Below, piece after piece: positions 4,089-61,136 of a stretch of DNA of 64,000 nucleotides (position 1 is its first letter; every line of letters begins with the position of its first letter). The DNA lies in the IMG/VR virus record IMGVR_UViG_2571042445_000002; one strand, given 5' to 3'. This DNA is from a virus (taxonomy: Duplodnaviria; Heunggongvirae; Uroviricota; Caudoviricetes). The position numbers and the translations under genes were made by a program. Under the pieces are notes generated by a model that had not been told where the DNA came from, ran no database searches, and worked only from the letters and a program-made list of their open reading frames with translations.

Positions 4089-4852
4089 CACCCAACAAAA
4101 CTCTCCTGTCCCGCATTGGCGAGTGGCAGACAACGCGTACTGGAAAATTCCAGACAACTGGTCTGGAAAGAGTGGATAACGCTTTTGCTACGCTAATCAG
4201 TGACATTTTTTCTGACGTAACGCTGGTGGAACCAGCAAAAGAAGAAAGGCGCTTTGCATCATTCCTGAGTCGCCCACCAGCGGAGCGTGTTTATGTTGCC
4301 CGTTTTGATAACGCGGTCGAGTTCCTTAAAGCGGTTCGCCGTGCTAATGCCGGGCAAGGGAGAAAGCCAGAGAATCCGAACATTAATCGCGATGCACTCC
4401 CTCTGATTAATATCTCGCGCTCAATGGATATCAGCTATATCAACAATGACCAGCAGATAGACCGCAAAAGCTGTGATCACTTCTGCGAACCTGGCAGCGG
4501 TATGCCTTTAGTAGCCCTGGAATACACCCAGGCAAATCTGACGTATGACGTTACATTAATGGCGACGGATAAGGCGACCATGAGTCTGATGTGTAATTCG
4601 CTAGGAGCACGTCTTCGCTTGATGGCAGGAACGCAGTTTGAAGCAACAACCCCGCTGGTACGAGTACCCGTCCCGCTAATTTGCGCGATTCAGGATGCTA
4701 AAGACATCAGTTTTACTGATGTTTCAGCCCCGATTGGGGAAGAGCGTATTTATGCTGCACAAACGGCAATTAGTGTTATAGCAGACGTGATCACCGCCTG
4801 GGAGCTGGACGCGAAACGAATTATTACTGAAACCTCTCTGAGAATGGGGTAA
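4085..4852 (+). CDS. hypothetical phage protein
   Basis: 255-aa ORF translationally coupled to flanking genes. Confidence 0.45.
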   Translation: MTPNKTLLSRIGEWQTTRTGKFQTTGLERVDNAFATLISDIFSDVTLVEPAKEERRFASFLSRPPAERVYVARFDNAVEFLKAVRRANAGQGRKPENPNINRDALPLINISRSMDISYINNDQQIDRKSCDHFCEPGSGMPLVALEYTQANLTYDVTLMATDKATMSLMCNSLGARLRLMAGTQFEATTPLVRVPVPLICAIQDAKDISFTDVSAPIGEERIYAAQTAISVIADVITAWELDAKRIITETSLRMG

Positions 4853-7491: not shown

Positions 7492-8139
7492 GTGAGTCTT
7501 TGTGATTATACAGGGAATATGGTTTCCCCCTGGCTGGAACACGGCATTGATGCAGTCATTGTCGATCCGCAACACCAGGAGTCCGGCAGCCAATTGATGG
7601 AGTCAGGTGCTGTACTCACACGTATCAGCGCAATTATTGACAGTGATGAGGTCTACAATTTCCTTCGGAAAAATTTGCACAGAGTTGTATTTTTAGCCGG
7701 TTTCCCTCCGTGTACTGACCTGGCTGTATCTGGCGCACGCTGGTTCGCAGATAAAGCGAAAAAAGATCCGGTTTTCCAGTTCAAAGCAATGCAGGTTGTC
7801 TGGCAGTGTTACGACATTGCAAAGATGATTGGTTGCCCGTACATGATTGAAAACCCGGTCAGCCAAATATCGACATTCTGGCGTAAACCTGATCACATAT
7901 TCCATCCTTATCACTTCACTGCATATTGCAAGGAAGACAATTACACCAAAAAAACATGCCTGTGGAGCGGACAAGGATTCATCATGCCAACTCCGCGAAT
8001 CGACGAGTCGTTAGGTGATCCAGACAACCGAATACACAAGGCACCGCCAGGACCTGAAAGAGCGAATTTTCGTAGCGCGACACCTTACGGTTTTGCAAGA
8101 GCTGTATTTGAAGCAAATAAGGAGGGAATCCGTGGCTGA
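7492..8139 (+). CDS. short C5-cytosine DNA methyltransferase-like protein (start uncertain: GTG 7492 or ATG 7519)
   Basis: Motif GFPPCTDLAVSGARW resembles C5-MTase PCQ motif IV; MIENPV resembles ENV motif VI; N-terminal SAM motif degenerate; only ~215 aa. Confidence 0.45.
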   Translation: MSLCDYTGNMVSPWLEHGIDAVIVDPQHQESGSQLMESGAVLTRISAIIDSDEVYNFLRKNLHRVVFLAGFPPCTDLAVSGARWFADKAKKDPVFQFKAMQVVWQCYDIAKMIGCPYMIENPVSQISTFWRKPDHIFHPYHFTAYCKEDNYTKKTCLWSGQGFIMPTPRIDESLGDPDNRIHKAPPGPERANFRSATPYGFARAVFEANKEGIRG

Positions 8140-9049
8140 TATTGGTGCTAAATTTATTTCTTATAGCGACAATCATCGTCCTGCGGCGGAAGCCACTATC
8201 AGCCATATGCGACGTATTCGCTCGGAGGACGAATTTGATCGCCCCGTCTTTAAGTGGGTCGGCGGCAAATTTTCTGCACTGCCCATTATCTTCGAACACC
8301 TGCCCCACGGAAAACGGTTGATAGAACCTTTCGTTGGAGGTGGCGCTGTTTTCACTAATGCCGGATTTAAAAGCAACCTGCTGAACGATATCAATAATGA
8401 CCTGATTAACTTCTATCAGACATTGCAGCGTGAAGGGCATTCTCTTATCACACTGGCATATCGTTTTTTTCAGGATTACAACTCTGCTGATGCATTTTTG
8501 AATGTTCGCAATGCATTCAACAATGGTGCTTATGATTCCCTTCACCATGCAGCGGCGTTCCTGTATCTCAATCGTCATTGTTTTAATGGCGTCACTCGCT
8601 ATAACCGTAAAGGAGAGTTCAACGTCGGATATGGAAAGCAGAAATCCCCCCACTTCCCTCTCGCGGAAATGGAGGCGTTCCTGGCTGACGATATTTCAAA
8701 GTATTCGGAATTTGTGTCCGGCGATTTTGCTGGTGTAATTGAGGCTGCAGGGAATGATGATGTGATTTTCTGCGATCCCCCCTATGAACCATTGCCCGAC
8801 ACTACCGGATTTACAAATTACTCAGGGCATAGCTTTAGGTTTGAAGATCAACAACGGCTGGTGTCACTGCTGGTGGATGCCCACAGACGCGGAGCGAAAA
8901 TTGTGATAACAAACAGTGGTGCGCCTAACATTCGCGAACTTTACGTTGGCAATGGCTTCAAGGTGTATCCTATGCCATCCCGTCGCTCTGTATCCTGTAA
9001 AGCATCAACCCGAATGATAGCTAACGACATTATAGCCACGCTCAATTAA
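8132..9049 (+). CDS. dam: DNA adenine methyltransferase (Dam family, GATC-type)
   Basis: FKWVGGK...EPFVGGGAVF (motif I) and DPPY (motif IV) in Dam order; GTG start at 8132 preceded by AAGGAGGG; alternative ATG at 8207; overlaps previous gene by 8 nt. Confidence 0.8.
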   Translation: MADIGAKFISYSDNHRPAAEATISHMRRIRSEDEFDRPVFKWVGGKFSALPIIFEHLPHGKRLIEPFVGGGAVFTNAGFKSNLLNDINNDLINFYQTLQREGHSLITLAYRFFQDYNSADAFLNVRNAFNNGAYDSLHHAAAFLYLNRHCFNGVTRYNRKGEFNVGYGKQKSPHFPLAEMEAFLADDISKYSEFVSGDFAGVIEAAGNDDVIFCDPPYEPLPDTTGFTNYSGHSFRFEDQQRLVSLLVDAHRRGAKIVITNSGAPNIRELYVGNGFKVYPMPSRRSVSCKASTRMIANDIIATLN

Positions 9050-9051
9050 GA

Positions 9052-9074
9052 AAAGCCCCATATGGGGCTTTATA
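9052..9074. terminator. hairpin AAAGCCCCA-TAT-GGGGCTTT downstream of dam
   Basis: 8-bp GC stem, short U-tract. Confidence 0.45.
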
Positions 9075-9094
9075 ACATCAAATAAACGCCATTA

Positions 9095-9180
9095 CGGTAC
9101 ACTAATAACACCATTCTGGTACTAAAAAGGCATCAAGGTAGTATCAAAATACCACATGGAACCAAAACGGTGTTATTCCG
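9095..9180. repeat. centromere-like repeats downstream of the ParA/ParG-like operon
   Basis: AACACCATTCTGGTACTAAAAAGG and inverted CCAAAACGGTGTT; near-identical copy AACACCGTTTTGGTACTAAAAGAA at 10300-10323 on the other side of the operon. Confidence 0.45.
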
Positions 9181-9183
9181 GCG

Positions 9184-9471
9184 TCATTTTGTATCCTCAG
9201 ACTCTGCAAGCATGAGGATAGCATGGCGGATCATATTCAATTTGCTGCGATTATGCTTTTTGCTTAACGCATCAAGTACCTGGTACTCGTATTCATTGAA
9301 GCCAACACGAATGGATTTAAAATCACGTGGGGCGTCCTTATCGAGCACTTTGTTGTCTTCTGGTTGCTCACCCGGCACCAAATCAGCCTTACTGGCAAAA
9401 TCCTCAATTCGGCGTTCAAGATCGGGGTCTTTTACTTCGGGGGCTTTTACCGATTTACGAGGCTTAATCAC
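9184..9471 (-). CDS. small partition protein, ParG-like (candidate centromere-binding protein)
   Basis: 95-aa ORF overlapping the parA stop by 8 nt; basic N-terminus, C-terminal helical segment; size and position typical of type Ib ParB/ParG. Confidence 0.45.
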   Translation of the reverse strand: MIKPRKSVKAPEVKDPDLERRIEDFASKADLVPGEQPEDNKVLDKDAPRDFKSIRVGFNEYEYQVLDALSKKHNRSKLNMIRHAILMLAESEDTK

Positions 9472-10105
9472 TTAATAACTCCTTAACCAACATCTGGATT
9501 TCACCTTTAGCTTTCCCGTTGTCCATCTCAACAACGCCCTTCCCTTCAGCCATGCAATCGCGGTAAACCTTACGATCACGAATGATGGTTTTCAGCAACT
9601 TCAGTTGCGGATATTCAGCCAGGTACTCTTTGGCCTCATTGGTTTCATTCACAACCGGATTGGATGGGGCCATTGTTAAGACTGCGAACGCCTTAATGCT
9701 AGGATTAGGCATCAGGTCCAAAGCCTCTTCAAACACTTCAACAAAGTGTGCCAGCGTGTCTAAATCTGGTTGAGATGGTCTAAATGGGACCAACACAATA
9801 TCTGCAGCGGTTATGCCTGTACGCATCTCTTTGCTATCGCGCCCGGCTGTATCAACAACTACAAATTCATAACGCTTATCCAGATCGAGAAGTGTTTCTC
9901 GAATATTACCAAACTTCTGGACACAATGAATTACAGGAGAAACCTCTGCCGTGTTACGGTCAGCTGCCCAGCGGGCAGCTGTTCCTTGCTTGTCTGCATC
10001 TAGTAACACTACATCCTTATTTTCGCGGGCAAGCTCCGCACAGATGTTTACGCTTGTGGTTGATTTTCCACAGCCACCTTTTTGGCTGACTACCAATATA
10101 ATCAT
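9464..10105 (-). CDS. parA: ParA-family partition ATPase (small type Ib)
   Basis: Deviant Walker A VVSQKGGCGKSTTS at N-terminus; 213 aa. Confidence 0.8.
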   Translation of the reverse strand: MIILVVSQKGGCGKSTTSVNICAELARENKDVVLLDADKQGTAARWAADRNTAEVSPVIHCVQKFGNIRETLLDLDKRYEFVVVDTAGRDSKEMRTGITAADIVLVPFRPSQPDLDTLAHFVEVFEEALDLMPNPSIKAFAVLTMAPSNPVVNETNEAKEYLAEYPQLKLLKTIIRDRKVYRDCMAEGKGVVEMDNGKAKGEIQMLVKELLSD

Positions 10106-10390
10106 ATCCGTTCCTCGGTGTTATTTTGGTATCAAACTGGTTCCAAACAGAAGCCTTATTGATGCGGTTTTGGCTCTATAGTGGAGTCACTATGCTTTGC
10201 AAAAGTATAACACTAAACACTCTAAATTTACCCTCTGTTGCATCCTGTTTAACACGAAATCAGCCTCAAAGTGGAACCAGACACAAAACAGCACCATAAC
10301 AACACCGTTTTGGTACTAAAAGAACACCAAATTAGAACCATAACAGTATAAAAAAGGCTGCAAATTGCAGCCTTTGAAGATGTAGATTTG
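10106..10390. repeat. repeat-rich region upstream of parA (candidate parS/operator)
   Basis: GGAACCAGA, TGGTTCC, AACACCGTTTTGGTACTAAAAG repeated and inverted relative to 9095-9180. Confidence 0.4.
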
Positions 10391-10756
10391 TTAATCAGGG
10401 AGTGAGTTTGCCAAATTCTGTGCAGAGCGGCTTTTCGAAACGCCAGGTTTTTTAACATCCGCTGAGGCTGAGGGGTTTCCTTCAGGGTTTTCCCGAACTT
10501 CAGGCGAAATTTCAAGAAATGAAACCAGCATTTTTCTGATCACTTCAGGGCTATTATCACCGGATAAAAGCGATGCCAACATGGGAGGTAATCTGCTATC
10601 AACCTCGCCAAGAGCGATACCTGCAAGCATCGCTGTGCGCGCCATATCATTGCGATCTCTTAATGGATGGCCCTCAAGTTTTGCATCAGCATATTGCTCA
10701 CTGGCGTTAAGACCAGGACGAAGATAAAACAATACTTTTCGACGTTCCTGAGACAT
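10391..10756 (-). CDS. parR: ParR/StbB-like partition adaptor
   Basis: 121 aa directly downstream of the ParM-like gene; N-terminal RRKVLFYLRPGLNASEQ resembles R1 ParR ribbon-helix-helix region as recalled. Confidence 0.5.
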   Translation of the reverse strand: MSQERRKVLFYLRPGLNASEQYADAKLEGHPLRDRNDMARTAMLAGIALGEVDSRLPPMLASLLSGDNSPEVIRKMLVSFLEISPEVRENPEGNPSASADVKKPGVSKSRSAQNLANSLPD

Positions 10757-10766
10757 GGCAACCTCA

Positions 10767-11726
10767 TCAACCGATAGATTTTAGACCATAGACAAGAGCA
10801 AGTTGTGGATCATCAGCAACGAAAAACCTATCGTCACGAATGTTTACCTGCTCACGGATAGCATCAGCAACAAGCGGCGCGCCGCCACCAATGACCATAA
10901 CATGCGTGTATCCTTTGAAATCACTGATCACATCCAGTACGCGTGTACGGAGTCGTTCTATGCTTGACGAAATGGCTTTCTTAACATCATCAATAGCAGA
11001 CGGATCGTTAATATTGTCGGTCAAATAATCCTCATCATCACGATTAATGATTAATTGATCGACATTATAATTAGAGGTTTCGGTATTCGCTTTTGCAAGT
11101 GCCTGTCTGACCTCTTTAGTTACCAGCGAAACGCCGAGATTAGAATCGCCAAATACGCGAGAAACGGCGGTCATTTGCCCGGCGACCATCGACACATCCA
11201 GAGTAGTCCCACCAAGATCAACAATAAGCACAGAATGCGCTGGCACAAGGCTGTCGCACAGACCGATCCCTGCGGGTATTGACTCCGGGCGCACAGTCAC
11301 TTTTTTGATAGTAAAAACCTGACCTTTGTTAAGGGTGACTGGGCGCATCAGGCTGGCCTTTTTCCGCTCAATATTTTTCATGTTGTATTGTGCGTCGTCG
11401 TCATAAAACTCTGCCAGTGGCAACGTGACAACTATTTCCACTTCTTGAGGCTCAATGCCACTTGTAAGCAGGGCATGATGAACAGCAAGCACATTAAGCG
11501 GGCTGTATTGCCATTCAACGTTATTCGTCGGCAGCACATCCGGCGAGATCAAGTCATATGAATATTTTTCGTCATCAATGATGTAGTTAAACGGCTTTCC
11601 TGCGCCAAATGTGGCGGACCATCCACGTTTAAAACTGTTCGGACAGATATGGGTTCGAGTTTCCCCGTCCTGTTCCCACAGCATTTTGATATTGGTAGAA
11701 CCATCGTCGATAAAAATGCGCATCAT
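10767..11726 (-). CDS. parM: ParM/StbA actin-like partition ATPase
   Basis: MMRIFIDDGSTNIK... and VIGGGAPLVADAI motifs parallel R1 ParM over full length; start MM at 11726 with GGAG 7 nt upstream. Confidence 0.8.
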   Translation of the reverse strand: MMRIFIDDGSTNIKMLWEQDGETRTHICPNSFKRGWSATFGAGKPFNYIIDDEKYSYDLISPDVLPTNNVEWQYSPLNVLAVHHALLTSGIEPQEVEIVVTLPLAEFYDDDAQYNMKNIERKKASLMRPVTLNKGQVFTIKKVTVRPESIPAGIGLCDSLVPAHSVLIVDLGGTTLDVSMVAGQMTAVSRVFGDSNLGVSLVTKEVRQALAKANTETSNYNVDQLIINRDDEDYLTDNINDPSAIDDVKKAISSSIERLRTRVLDVISDFKGYTHVMVIGGGAPLVADAIREQVNIRDDRFFVADDPQLALVYGLKSIG

Positions 11727-11740
11727 ATTGCTCCACTTCT

Positions 11741-11911
11741 GAGACACATTTGAGAAAGAATTGAATTTTATATGAGAAAACAAAATAAGACCAGAAGTTA
11801 GATAGCGTAGAAAGCATCAAACTAGAGACGTAAGAGAGACACAAAAGAGACTTAGATGATACATGATGTACCCATGATACCCTTTTGAGACAAATCAGAG
11901 ACAAATATGAG
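11741..11911. repeat. parC-like iteron array (GAGACA repeats at ~10-11 bp spacing) upstream of parM
   Basis: GAGACACA at 11741 and 11835, AGAGAC at 11824 and 11846, GAGACAAAT at 11887 and 11898. Confidence 0.5.
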
Positions 11912-11975
11912 AAGTAAGAAATCTGAAGAGTGAAAATCACAAAGTGGAGAAGATTTAAGAAAAAGGAGGTGTTAG

Positions 11976-12260
11976 ATGAGTGCAATAGCGACCAGTGACA
12001 CAGTTTGTTCTGGTCATGGAGGATTCCCTCCGCGACCTGTAGCAGAAACAGTTTCCTGGTTTACCGTAAATGGAAAGCCAGTAGTTGTAGATGGGGGAGC
12101 GTTCCCCAGCCATACAGACGGAAATAGCGCGCACCCCGGATCAGCCGTATCGACGCGCTCATGGTTTGCAATAGGCGGGAAAGGAGTTGTTTGTGTGGGA
12201 GATCCCCTTTCTTGTGGCTCAGTCATCGCCAATGGTGAGGCAATTTTTCAGGTGTCATAA
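11976..12260 (+). CDS. PAAR-like spike-tip protein
   Basis: 94 aa, Gly/Pro/Cys-rich (CSGHGGFP..GGAFPSHTDG..GDPLSCGSV); strong SD AAGGAGG. Confidence 0.5.
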   Translation: MSAIATSDTVCSGHGGFPPRPVAETVSWFTVNGKPVVVDGGAFPSHTDGNSAHPGSAVSTRSWFAIGGKGVVCVGDPLSCGSVIANGEAIFQVS

Positions 12261-13054
12261 TGCTTGATTCAATCGCTGAAGTTAATGCATTCAAAATTCT
12301 AAATGCATCAGGCACAACTACGCCTGCATCTATCACGCTAAGTAAAACAGCGTCATCCAATGCCAGTTCTCTGGAAGAGAATATCCAGGCTCTTATCCTG
12401 AAGGATAAAGCATACCCGGCGTCGGTGGTTTCATGGGTCAATCAGCTTTCTGTCTTTTCAGAACAACTGAAAACTGTCAGTGCAGAAGCAACCAATTTAG
12501 CCGACTCGCTGTCTCCGTATACTTCGCCAACTGAATTACTTCAGATGAAAATTGGCTGGGAATGTTACGTCAAAGGTAATGAGTTATCTCCTGCGCCAGA
12601 ATTTGCTCTCGTAACAGTTATGGGAGATACCCTGCATCCGCAATCGCTTATTGACGCGTTGGCAGCATTTGAACTGGTGCCAATCACTTCAGCCATGACC
12701 GCTATAAATGCAAAAGTTCAGGCGTCAAGCGGGGAGGCTTCAGGCAACGGAAGTTCCACCGGAACAACACAGCAACCAGCACTAACAGAAGAAGAGATCA
12801 AAGCACTAAAAGACGCAGTGGAAGCAGCAACAGAACAAATAAATGCAATAAACAACACGAGCAGTAGTCTCTCAACACTTGTACAGCAAGTTAAGGACTC
12901 TACCGGAAAAGCCAAACAGGGACTGGAGAATGCTGTAGCTATTACGTTAACCGGTTCTCTACTGGGCGATGAAGTAATGAGTCCGGCAATCAGTTTGATC
13001 ATGCCACAAGGTGTGATCGATGCGCTCCAAAGCAACACTAAAAAGGAACCATAA
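12260..13054 (+). CDS. hypothetical protein
   Basis: 264-aa ORF, start overlaps PAAR stop (TAATG). Confidence 0.4.
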   Translation: MLDSIAEVNAFKILNASGTTTPASITLSKTASSNASSLEENIQALILKDKAYPASVVSWVNQLSVFSEQLKTVSAEATNLADSLSPYTSPTELLQMKIGWECYVKGNELSPAPEFALVTVMGDTLHPQSLIDALAAFELVPITSAMTAINAKVQASSGEASGNGSSTGTTQQPALTEEEIKALKDAVEAATEQINAINNTSSSLSTLVQQVKDSTGKAKQGLENAVAITLTGSLLGDEVMSPAISLIMPQGVIDALQSNTKKEP

Positions 13055-13124
13055 CCACACCATTTTAGCCCATAAATGGTTACAAATTGGTACACATATC
13101 ACACCAACAAAAAATCTGAAGAGG

Positions 13125-46081: not shown

Positions 46082-46399
46082 ATTTATATCGTCACTAAAA
46101 AACAGCATCTGATAAAAATTCTGTTGATCTTTCTAATGTTCAGGCTTATATTCATGCCGTCGTAGCAAATTCTGCGACCGGGTTTAGCAGCCTGAATGTT
46201 AGTGCGGACAACCGCAGATATCCGATATTGCGGTATTTTTGTGTCCGTAAAACCGCGTTACGCCCAAATTATGGTGGGGCGTGATGGGGAGGCTTCGGCC
46301 TGCTGGTTTCACTAACGCCAGTCTGCTAACCCCGTCACGTCCTGCCACCTGTTTAGCAGCGGGTAGCAGGTTGTTAAACCTGTTAGTGAGGCCGTAACT

Positions 46400-60238: not shown

Positions 60239-60313
60239 GATGGTGTAGCTCAGTGGTAGAGCAGTTGGCTGTTAACCAACTGGTCGGTGGTTCGAATCCA
60301 CTCACCATCGCCA
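60239..60313 (+). tRNA. tRNA-Asn (anticodon GTT)
   Basis: Cloverleaf parsed manually: acceptor GATGGTG/CACCATC, D-arm GCTC-AGTGGTA-GAGC, anticodon loop CTGTTAA, T-loop TTCGAAT, 3' CCA encoded. Confidence 0.8.
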
Positions 60314-60315
60314 AT

Positions 60316-60391
60316 GCCGGTTTAGCTCAGTTGGTAGAGCGCCTGCCTTGTAAGCAGGATGTCAGCGGTTCGAGTCCGTTAACCGGCACCA
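60316..60391 (+). tRNA. tRNA-Thr (anticodon TGT)
   Basis: Acceptor GCCGGTT/AACCGGC, anticodon stem CCTGC/GCAGG with loop CTTGTAA, T-loop TTCGAGT, CCA encoded; 2 nt after tRNA-Asn. Confidence 0.8.
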
Positions 60392-60392
60392 A

Positions 60393-60479
60393 CACAACAG
60401 GTAAGGGTATTTTGCGACGTCGGAGATCGCCGAGCTTGGCAGAGGGTTCGAATCCCTACGAAGTACCCTTACCGTTGTG
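60393..60479 (+). other. tRNA-like element: canonical T-loop (GGTTCGAATCC) and D-arm-like hairpin enclosed by a 16-17 bp inverted repeat; lacks anticodon arm (pseudo-tRNA or structured RNA)
   Basis: IR CACAACAGGTAAGGGTA 60393-60409 / TACCCTTACCGTTGTG 60464-60479; cannot be folded into a full cloverleaf. Confidence 0.3.
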
Positions 60480-60579
60480 ATGAATGCACAGGCTGATGTG
60501 CCGCAACTACAGTAGTGCGCGCTTTGCGGGGCTTGCTACAACCCTGTGTCGGAGTTCAGCACCGACCATCACAATCACT

Positions 60580-60666
60580 GGAGAGTAGGGAGCATGGTGC
60601 TCAAGCGGTCTTGAAAACCGTCCCATTGCGCAAGCGATGATGGTTCGATTCCATTACTCTCCGCCA
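60580..60666 (+). tRNA. atypical tRNA-like gene, possibly tRNA-Ser(TGA) with long variable arm and unusual D-arm
   Basis: Acceptor GGAGAGT/ACTCTCC + G + CCA; anticodon arm GCGGT-CTTGAAA-ACCGT; T-arm GATGG-TTCGATT-CCATT; D-arm atypical (5-bp stem, 3-nt loop). Confidence 0.35.
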
Positions 60667-60922
60667 GCGCAACGTTAAGAGTATTTGGCTAATTAAGCGA
60701 ATGCCGGAAGCAGAACCGGATCACCAAATGCTCTTACCATTGCGGTGAATGCGGCTAAGCGCACGCGGAACAGTTAAAACAGTAAAGGTGGTCTTTTTAC
60801 TGGCGTAACGAGAATCCATAAGTGATCCGGCGTTAATTGTTAACTGGTTAACGTCACCGGGAGGCACCCGGCACCGCAACCTAACAGCAATGGCGTTTTG
60901 TCTTAAAAGGTGGCTGCAAGTG

Positions 60923-61051
60923 ATGGATTTTTGGGCGTTTGCCGATAAAAACCCGGAGTGGACATTATTGTTTCTGCTGGTGGTTGCATACGGGGTAGAG
61001 CAAGCGGCAAAAGCCTTACGCGGTTCTGGCAAAAAGCGTAAGCGTAATTAA
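60923..61051 (+). CDS. 42-aa small membrane protein candidate (MDFWAFADKNPEWTLLFLLVVAYGVEQAAKALRGSGKKRKRN)
   Basis: Single hydrophobic helix plus basic C-terminus; SD AAGGTGG; located between tRNA-like genes; below ORF-track size cutoff. Confidence 0.3.
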   Translation: MDFWAFADKNPEWTLLFLLVVAYGVEQAAKALRGSGKKRKRN

Positions 61052-61060
61052 CAGTAATCT

Positions 61061-61136
61061 GGCCCTTTAGCTCAGTGGTTAGAGCGGGCGACTCATAATC
61101 GCACGGTCACCGGTTCAAGTCCGGTAGGGGCCACCA
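61061..61136 (+). tRNA. tRNA with CAT anticodon, ileX-like (tRNA-Ile2/lysidine type or elongator Met)
   Basis: GGCCCTTTAGCTCAGTGGTTAGAGCGGGCGACTCATAATCGC...GGTTCAAGTCCGGTAGGGGCCACCA closely resembles E. coli ileX as recalled. Confidence 0.8.

Follow-up and report, generated by a model that had tools for sequence, protein, structure and literature searches.

A tandem double partition locus in a D6-like phage-plasmid, probably combining type II ParMRC and type Ib ParA/ribbon-helix-helix systems, each with its own sites

The E. coli virulence plasmid pB171 reportedly carries two partition (par) loci, of which par1 is a type II parMR system and par2 is a type Ib parAB system with two sites, parC1 and parC2; the ParA of pB171 is an established partition ATPase. 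In the type Ib ParF-ParG-parH system of TP228 from Salmonella, short repeats serve as both centromere and operator, and in the ParMRC system of R1, the iterons upstream of parM follow an 11-bp periodicity and are arranged in two blocks of five. Here, a related locus was analyzed in a 64,000-nucleotide stretch of the viral record IMGVR_UViG_2571042445_000002 (hereafter, the window, meaning this whole stretch, to which coordinates refer unless noted otherwise). The window represents a D6-like, P1-related phage-plasmid, and about 3 kb of it are occupied by what is probably a tandem double partition locus, consisting of a type II ParMRC system and a type Ib system formed by a small ParA and a ribbon-helix-helix (RHH) protein, each with its own sites. 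We put the probability of this functional reading at roughly 0.78. It is carried by the identities and the fold of the encoded proteins, by non-random repeats that are conserved around homologous cassettes, by purifying selection on both cassettes, and by their independent exchange among related elements; from these comparisons, we infer the pairing of each protein with its repeats, the promoter positions, and the stabilization of the plasmid by each cassette.

The initial annotation of this locus had called the presence of two partition systems on one replicon unusual. However, in a 2026 survey, ∼19% of the par-bearing plasmids in PLSDB have more than one par system, and the combination of a type I RHH system with a type II system was found in 971 accessions, having been previously reported for pB171, R27, and pINV. 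Therefore, two systems of different types are not unusual. The pB171-type double locus, recovered with the 2JD3 alignment fragment (pB171 ParR) as the query, was found in 1,035 PLSDB records, mostly conjugative Escherichia plasmids; in an inspected IncFIB example, parB-parA is divergent from parM-parR. Partition labels already exist for the D6 group as well. The GenBank record of phage D6 (NC_050154) names a “ParA-like partition protein,” a “partition protein,” and the StbA/StbB type, and a description of pYU39_89 (PMC6799933) lists “cop, parA, stbB and parM” together, with parA, stbB, and parM as the partition system and the small gene as “cop.” No study dissecting a D6-like par locus or its cis sites was found in the searchable literature.

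Organization and genomic setting of the two cassettes

All four par genes are on the minus strand, and the elements follow one another in the direction of transcription as iterons (11912 to 11741), parM, parR, a hairpin (10375 to 10353), a 247-bp spacer with repeat arrays, parA, the gene of its partner, a further set of repeats (9177 to 9097), and a closing hairpin (9071 to 9052). The genes, iterons, and hairpins are given below; conservation refers to phage D6 and to L003, the plasmid p1_000200, an E. coli variant in which the partner is 77% identical.

11741 to 11912, minus strand: parC-like iteron array upstream of parM, with GAGA cores (TCTC on the gene strand) in three 11-bp-phased blocks
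10767 to 11723, minus strand: parM, actin-like segregation ATPase of 318 amino acids (Pfam StbA_N, 2e-69; ParM_N, 9e-56), with an alternative ATG start at 11729
10391 to 10756, minus strand: parR/stbB, type II centromere-binding adaptor of 121 amino acids (Pfam Plasmid_stab_B, 3e-14)
10353 to 10375, minus strand: terminator-like hairpin between parR and the ParA cassette, with a 10-bp stem, 5 GC pairs, and a T run; conserved in D6 and L003
9464 to 10105, minus strand: parA, partition ATPase with a deviant Walker A motif, 213 amino acids, beginning MIILVVSQKGGCGKST, with KGGCGKS at residues 9 to 15
9184 to 9471, minus strand: gene of the 95-amino-acid partner, a candidate centromere-binding protein, with a GTG start and an 8-nt overlap with the 3′ end of parA
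9052 to 9071, minus strand: terminator-like hairpin closing the ParA cassette, directly past the convergent Dam-like methylase gene

Thus, a type II and a type Ib cassette lie side by side on one replicon. The coordinates of the initial annotation are accurate, and as it had proposed, the two systems are of different types, each associated with repeat arrays of its own. Both cassettes are complete, one with actin-type ParMR and the other with a small Walker-type ParA and an RHH partner. The terminator between the cassettes, together with the putative separate promoter that is placed upstream of parA below, suggests that they are two transcription units.

The first cassette shows the features of type II systems, namely, a ParM ATPase, a ParR adaptor encoded directly downstream, and direct repeats of ∼11 bp upstream of parM. 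ParM matches R1 ParM in the PDB over its full length (E = 1.7e-110; ∼55% identical positions, counted by eye) and is 42% identical to the pB171-type ParM. The parR gene starts 11 bp past the parM stop codon, and its product matches the pB171 ParR structure 2JD3 over residues 3 to 78 (E = 3.9e-7).

Upstream of parM, the cores of block A are at 11876, 11887, 11898, and 11909; those of block B are at 11825, 11836, 11847, and 11858; and those of block C are at 11741, 11752, (11763), 11774, and (11786), so that block C extends to just upstream of the ribosome-binding site. The three blocks are mutually offset by about −4/+7 bp. The exact hexamer GAGACA, by which these iterons had originally been described, is not enriched window-wide (25 observed versus 25.8 expected), and therefore, the iterons were instead defined by the GAGA/TCTC core and its 11-bp phasing. 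In this form, the iteron array stands: positions 11726 to 11925 contain 10 cores, with 9 pairs in an 11-, 22-, or 33-bp register, which is the most extreme value among 5,104 segments of 200 bp, both strands included. Furthermore, TCTC arrays upstream of parM are kept in D6 (8 cores) and L003 (7 cores) despite only ∼40% DNA identity to the window in this region, both with a distal phased run of 2 or 3 cores and an identical proximal pair beside the ribosome-binding site. The sequence TAAAAT at 11770 to 11765 is conserved in the window, D6, and L003; it was not called by a consensus scan and may be a −10 element among the block C iterons, in which case ParR would regulate its own operon as in R1. 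The parM iterons lie in a 246-bp divergent intergenic region (11730 to 11975) shared with a PAAR-domain gene (upfC-like, 11976 to 12260), which is followed by an upfB-like gene; given this shared region, ParR binding could also affect the PAAR/upfB operon.

The identity of the element follows from several comparisons. The 3-kb par region shows 99.7% identity to a 91.7-kb non-mobilizable E. coli plasmid, in which the neighboring genes encode phage tail, baseplate, capsid, and portal proteins, the pacase, lytic replication functions, a Cre-like recombinase, phd/doc, and higBA. Positions 9186 to 11778 are 84% identical to phage D6, and apart from D6, the pair of par cassettes has matches in 122 PLSDB records, nearly all of them non-mobilizable, mostly ∼90 kb in size, and hosted by Escherichia, Salmonella, or Shigella. 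In addition, a P1-type C4 antisense RNA and an a1/b1 target, the immI immunity module of P1-like phages, were identified with Rfam at 46146 to 46198 and 46267 to 46352, and a cluster of four tRNA genes is at 60239 to 61136 (Asn-GTT, Thr-TGT, Ser-TGA, and Met-CAT, of which Ser was called by ARAGORN only and is absent from Rfam at the gathering threshold). Therefore, the window is a D6-like, P1-related phage-plasmid. No P1-type ParA/ParB or other partition gene is annotated in the ∼76 of 92 kb of the near-identical plasmid that were examined, and an Rfam scan of positions 9000 to 12000 found no known RNA.

The gene beside the par locus varies. In the window, it encodes a Dam-like, D12-class N6-adenine methyltransferase (8015 to 9049), convergent on the ParA cassette, and in phage D6, a glutaminyl-tRNA synthetase gene (glnS) is at the same position (L002, 1069 to 2730). 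The D6-like par region of pSa1423-90k (NZ_MK356557.1; L004) is full of frameshifts, with most genes unannotated, which looks like uncorrected long-read error rather than biology; this plasmid was left out of the comparisons.

The ParA partner and the repeats around parA

ParA of the second cassette is small and lacks an N-terminal helix-turn-helix domain, as in type Ib systems. It matches the Pfam families AAA_31, CbiA, and ParA, and its top PDB match is TP228 ParF (206 amino acids), with which it aligns end to end at E = 1.5e-18 and only ∼28% identity, as estimated by eye. The similarity to the pB171-type ParA (214 amino acids) is higher, with 43% identity over the full length (E = 5e-59). 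The score against the NCBIfam model ParA_partition, 162.8, is below the cutoff of 180.

The 95-amino-acid partner had been described as ParG-like. It has no match in sequence searches against Pfam, NCBIfam, or the PDB (ParG, 1P94, included); its PHROG match, Arc-like, is weak (4e-4), and a profile of its family retrieves only weak CopG-family matches from the PDB (E = 0.24 to 1). An exhaustive HMMER search found ∼100 clusters of relatives, mostly of 65 to 100 residues, and the family alignment conserves an N-terminal MVKxR, an IExFAxxAD segment, and a C-terminal KxIxVPFNEYEYxxLExxAxxxGRSKLNxIRxAI; in 61 aligned sequences, R5 is at least 90% conserved. An AlphaFold2 model built from the family alignment (mean predicted local distance difference test score, 88.5) has helices at residues 16 to 29, 60 to 73, and 77 to 91, with an extended segment between the first two; the N-terminal tail is basic, and residues 52 to 91 form a strand-helix-helix unit. 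In a Foldseek search of the PDB, the leading matches of this model are all RHH proteins, namely, CopA, CopG, and Arc, with ParG at rank 11, probabilities up to 0.99, and root mean square deviations of 1.2 to 1.5 Å. Members of the partner family also match RHH families in Pfam. By its predicted structure, the partner is an RHH protein, encoded directly downstream of parA as in type Ib systems. Therefore, the term “ParG-like” is correct for fold and architecture, but it does not extend to the sequence family, with no similarity to ParG (PF09274) or to pB171 ParB.

The partner gene is tightly linked to a gene for a ParA-type ATPase across Gammaproteobacteria. A search for related loci with an alignment of nine partner sequences yielded 15 genomic loci, and in 13 of these, the partner gene is directly preceded by a gene for a ParA of ∼209 amino acids that begins MIILIGSQKGGCGKST or similarly. 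An adjacent ParA-type ATPase gene was present at every plasmid locus examined, and in Acinetobacter and Thiothrix plasmids, the pair adjoins rep genes (repM or trfA).

The repeat units around this operon read RYACC on one strand and GGTRY on the other, are usually followed by A-rich sequence, and can also be represented as GTACCAAAA. They form the following features, listed with the inferred promoter element.

10274 to 10339, no strand assigned: distal upstream array, with GAACC at 10274, GCACC at 10291, ACACC at 10302, inverted GGTAC at 10312, ACACC at 10324, and GAACC at 10335
10204 to 10212, minus strand: putative extended −10 element of the parA promoter, TGTTATACT, read from the sequence and missed by the consensus scan
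10117 to 10143, no strand assigned: proximal triplet, with GGTGT at 10117, GGTAT at 10128, and GGTTC at 10139, exactly 11 bp apart; conserved in D6
9097 to 9177, no strand assigned: downstream cluster, with GGTAC at 9097, ACACC at 9108, GGTAC at 9118, ATACC at 9149, GAACC at 9159, and GGTGT at 9169
13046 to 13106, no strand assigned: possible third cluster, with GAACC at 13046, ACACC at 13057, TGGTTA, TGGTAC, and ACACC

The upstream spacer contains 7 units versus 0.36 expected (P = 1e-7), and the last five units of the distal array (10291 to 10339) keep an 11-bp register in which the middle unit is inverted. The string GTTATACT, in the region of the inferred parA promoter, is conserved in the window, D6, and L003. 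The proximal triplet sits between this promoter and the parA Shine-Dalgarno sequence and so is likely to be an operator. Downstream of the operon, between the partner stop codon and the terminator, there are 3 stringent units versus 0.16 expected (P = 7e-4). The two sides are connected by the 21-mer AACACCRTTYTGGTACTAAAA, which occurs exactly twice, at 9107 (9107 to 9127) and 10301 (10301 to 10321), both on the plus strand, and in none of 100 shuffles; furthermore, 9104 to 9120 pairs with 9161 to 9177 as a 17-nt inverted copy with 88% complementarity. The repeats thus flank the ParA operon on both sides in direct and inverted copies, in agreement with the initial annotation, and as in type Ib systems, arrays adjoin the cassette at 10117 to 10143, 10274 to 10339, and 9097 to 9177. 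Judged from the sequence, the last of these is a parC2-like second array downstream of the gene of the candidate centromere-binding protein. In the whole 64 kb, there are nine same-strand pairs of units at 11 bp, four of which are upstream of parA and one at 13046.

Apart from the parA flanks, the possible third cluster is the only site in the 64 kb at which 3 or more stringent units fall within 120 bp, and it is conserved in D6 and L003. It is located ∼1.1 kb beyond the parM iterons, between the stop codon of the upfB-like gene (13054) and a membrane-protein gene (start at 13020 or 13128), and the RHH protein may bind here as well.

Because the unit pattern was defined on the window, it was compared with other loci. 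The bare 4-mer TGGT gave only modest enrichment and was replaced by the 8-mer RHACCA[ATG][AT], defined on the window only. The comparison included 15 independent loci, namely, 13 genomic contigs (from diverse Gammaproteobacteria and one betaproteobacterium) and plasmids from Thiothrix and Serratia. Over these loci, 63 units were found in 5.4 kb of cassette flanks versus 91 in the remaining 62 kb, an ∼8-fold enrichment (P ∼ 1e-34), with units on both flanks in 10 of the 15. Among the close relatives, L003 is enriched on both sides of the cassette, and the downstream flank of D6 cannot be aligned to the window yet contains 7 units versus 0.47 expected. The cassettes of Serratia pELP1.10 and Thiothrix pTunz2 encode partners of only ∼48 to 54% identity, and their flanks carry near-copies of the window TTTTGGTACTAAAAGAACACC; near-identical TTTTGGTACTAAAA..ACACC strings adjoin both cassettes. 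In Moraxella, a cassette is flanked on each side by a 27-bp repeat of its own. These comparisons give good grounds for regarding the units as probable recognition sites of the RHH protein; they support a putative centromere or operator role for the repeats flanking parA and show candidate sites on both sides of the operon to be a trait of the ParA/RHH family. In Serratia pELP1.10, the sequence at positions 4490 to 4553 of L005 (GGTATATTAATGGTATCATTTTGACATCAAAAATACCCAATAAAGGAACCGTT), upstream of the gene that follows the ParA/RHH cassette, is similar to that upstream of parA on this plasmid, and therefore, the Serratia RHH protein may regulate this third gene.

Several observations weigh against a double partition locus. 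The repeat unit is short and degenerate, its pattern was chosen after viewing the window, and the flanks of three homologous loci (L015, L017, and L025) are not enriched; an operator function could be all that the upstream arrays have. In sequence, the partner does not significantly resemble ParG, omega, or pB171 ParB (BLASTP against the pB171-type ParB, E = 0.13), and the E values of its fold search are individually weak, at 0.1 to 1, as expected because the domain has only 42 residues. Neither operon was preceded by a credible sigma-70 promoter in the consensus scan, which is why promoter positions were placed from conservation only. Finally, the searchable literature shows no binding, stability, or localization experiment on this or any D6-like element.

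The downstream cluster lies past the stop codon, a position that would hardly suit an operator of the promoter of this cassette, and this counts against an improbable alternative, namely, that only ParMRC is a partition system, whereas the ParA-like ATPase and the RHH protein exert copy-number or transcriptional control or position other cargo, the repeats being just operators. The name “cop,” listed with parA, stbB, and parM in pYU39_89 (PMC6799933), would fit such a role, and RHH proteins are often plain repressors, as the best fold matches of the partner, CopG, CopA, and Arc, recall; however, the N-terminal tail of the partner, with its conserved arginine, resembles ParG-type activators. 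PHROGs gives the partner family as of unknown function, and ParA falls short of the NCBIfam ParA_partition cutoff (162.8 versus 180), but ParA is 43% identical to that of pB171, and in the Acinetobacter and Thiothrix plasmids, the pair adjoins rep genes in 5-kb regions where no other par gene is annotated.

In the double partition locus that we favor, ParR would bind as dimers all along the 11-bp iterons upstream of parM, and this complex would both repress the parMR promoter and cap ParM actin-like filaments, which would push sister plasmids apart. The 95-amino-acid RHH protein would bind the 11-bp-phased RYACC(A)WA units on both sides of its operon, namely, those that precede parA, which would overlap the operator, and those that follow its own gene, in a layout that would resemble parC1 and parC2 of pB171 par2. 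Through its flexible N-terminal tail, the RHH protein would stimulate the ATPase of nucleoid-bound ParA, so that plasmids would be spaced along the nucleoid.

Cassette exchange and selection

The two cassettes differ in their relationships to phage D6, and the pattern is opposite in the window and in L003, as the protein identities show.

ParA: window versus D6, 100%; L003 versus D6, 93%
RHH partner: window versus D6, 98%; L003 versus D6, 77%
ParM: window versus D6, 94%; L003 versus D6, 100%
ParR: window versus D6, 58%; L003 versus D6, 96%

In DNA, parA of the window and D6 differ at 2 of 639 sites, with a synonymous divergence (dS) of 0.014, whereas parM differs at 190 of 954 sites, with saturated dS and a nonsynonymous divergence (dN) of 0.038. 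In a sliding comparison with D6, identity is at least 99% only over ∼9270 to 10100, compared with 75% in the spacer, 57% in parR, 75 to 90% in parM, and ∼40% in the iterons; L003 shows the reverse pattern in the sliding comparison as well. These opposite patterns show that the two cassettes were exchanged independently among D6-like elements. The suggestion that a module had been captured from another plasmid is therefore borne out as cassette-level recombination, giving the cassettes separate histories among D6-like elements, but the comparison does not show that the double locus was created by a recent acquisition. In each of the swapped cassettes, the most diverged gene is that of the centromere-binding protein, ParR or the RHH protein. 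The ParR allele of the window is rare, being present in 7 PLSDB records with no intermediates; a donor was not found in PLSDB, where the next-best matches are 57 to 59% identical.

Both cassettes are under purifying selection, with dN/dS well below 0.05 (dN of 0.038 with saturated dS for parM and dN of 0.031 with dS of 1.25 for parA). Such strong constraint makes it very improbable that one cassette has become redundant and survives as a relic with no remaining role in maintenance. In other plasmids with two par systems, one can dominate: according to the SCP1 paper, parABS1 is the one system of importance to SCP1 in the laboratory, and the contributions in R27 and pINV are condition dependent. 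Here, however, both cassettes are intact, the pair is found in the 122 PLSDB records and in phage D6, and the repeat arrays of each are kept in diverged lineages.

Hardly credible is the idea that the parA-flanking repeats arose as recombination scars or mark the ends of a mobile cassette rather than being protein-binding centromeres: exact 21-mer direct repeats do bracket the operon, 1,194 bp apart, and exchange of the parA-partner coding block between lineages is clear, but the block shared with D6 at 99% or more has its breakpoints inside or beside genes and leaves the repeats outside, in flanks that are 46 to 75% identical, and the units are multiple, degenerate, 11-bp phased, in both orientations, and present around distant homologs in different genomic contexts.

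An extension of the double-locus reading can be offered only tentatively, and we regard it as unlikely on balance. The RHH protein would recognize 9097 to 9177, 10117 to 10339, and 13046 to 13106, forming with the type II system a composite centromere of ∼4 kb, and the divergence of the centromere-binding proteins in the swapped cassettes would reflect escape from partition incompatibility during co-residence. With the third cluster on the far side of ParMRC and of the divergent PAAR/upfB genes, the entire type II locus would be enclosed by type Ib sites. If this were true, the two systems could cross-regulate each other or neighboring phage genes.

Significance and comparison with known systems

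The phage-plasmids that make up the P1/D6 group are low-copy elements, widespread in E. coli, Shigella, and Salmonella, and depend on partition for their stability, and in the D6 group, a type II and type Ib pair would stand in place of the type Ia ParAB-parS system of P1. The kind of arrangement and the partition labels of the D6 reference record were already known, and the understanding of partition mechanisms is unchanged. New here are the predicted fold of the 95-amino-acid partner, comparatively supported cis sites for both cassettes, a family-wide unit, and the independent exchange of the cassettes. The previously unannotated 95-amino-acid gene can be assigned as encoding a probable centromere-binding protein, and the RYACC(A)WA unit annotates a widespread gammaproteobacterial family of ParA/RHH cassettes in which the partner is now labeled “hypothetical.” With these candidate cis sites, experiments on stability, incompatibility, and plasmid typing become straightforward to design.

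Among replicons with more than one partition system, R27 (IncHI1), Shigella pINV, and SCP1 are comparable in that the contributions of their systems are reported to depend on conditions, but their type combinations or protein families differ from those described here. Compared with R1 ParMRC, ParM matches over its full length, and iterons with 11-bp periodicity are likewise arranged upstream of parM in separate blocks; however, ParR of the window is closer to the pB171/StbB family, and there are three phased blocks instead of two blocks of five. TP228 ParF-ParG-parH shares with the second cassette a small ParA-type ATPase and a partner that, in the window, is predicted to have the same flexible N-terminal tail and C-terminal RHH domain, whereas the ParA is only ∼28% identical to ParF (by eye), the partner lacks sequence similarity to ParG, and the repeat clusters are on both sides of the operon. 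D6 and D6-like plasmid prophages, such as pYU39_89, have the same four genes in the same order; the window differs in its rare ParR allele (58% identical to that of D6) and in its iteron spacers, and in the annotations of these relatives, the 95-amino-acid gene is only “hypothetical” or “cop” and centromere sites are not marked.

The closest parallel is pB171. The locus of the window is arranged in tandem on one strand with a terminator in between, unlike the divergent pB171 operons with their shared central region; its RHH partner belongs to a sequence family other than that of pB171 ParB (E = 0.13), its units are RYACC/GGTRY rather than the ATGA/TGTGA-type hexamers of the pB171-type locus, and its host is a phage-plasmid rather than a conjugative or IncF plasmid. 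Nevertheless, the ParA and ParM proteins are 43% and 42% identical, respectively, and ParR is detectably homologous; the type Ib operon has repeat clusters upstream and downstream, as with parC1 and parC2; and both replicons show the same adjacent pairing of a type II system with a type Ib RHH system.

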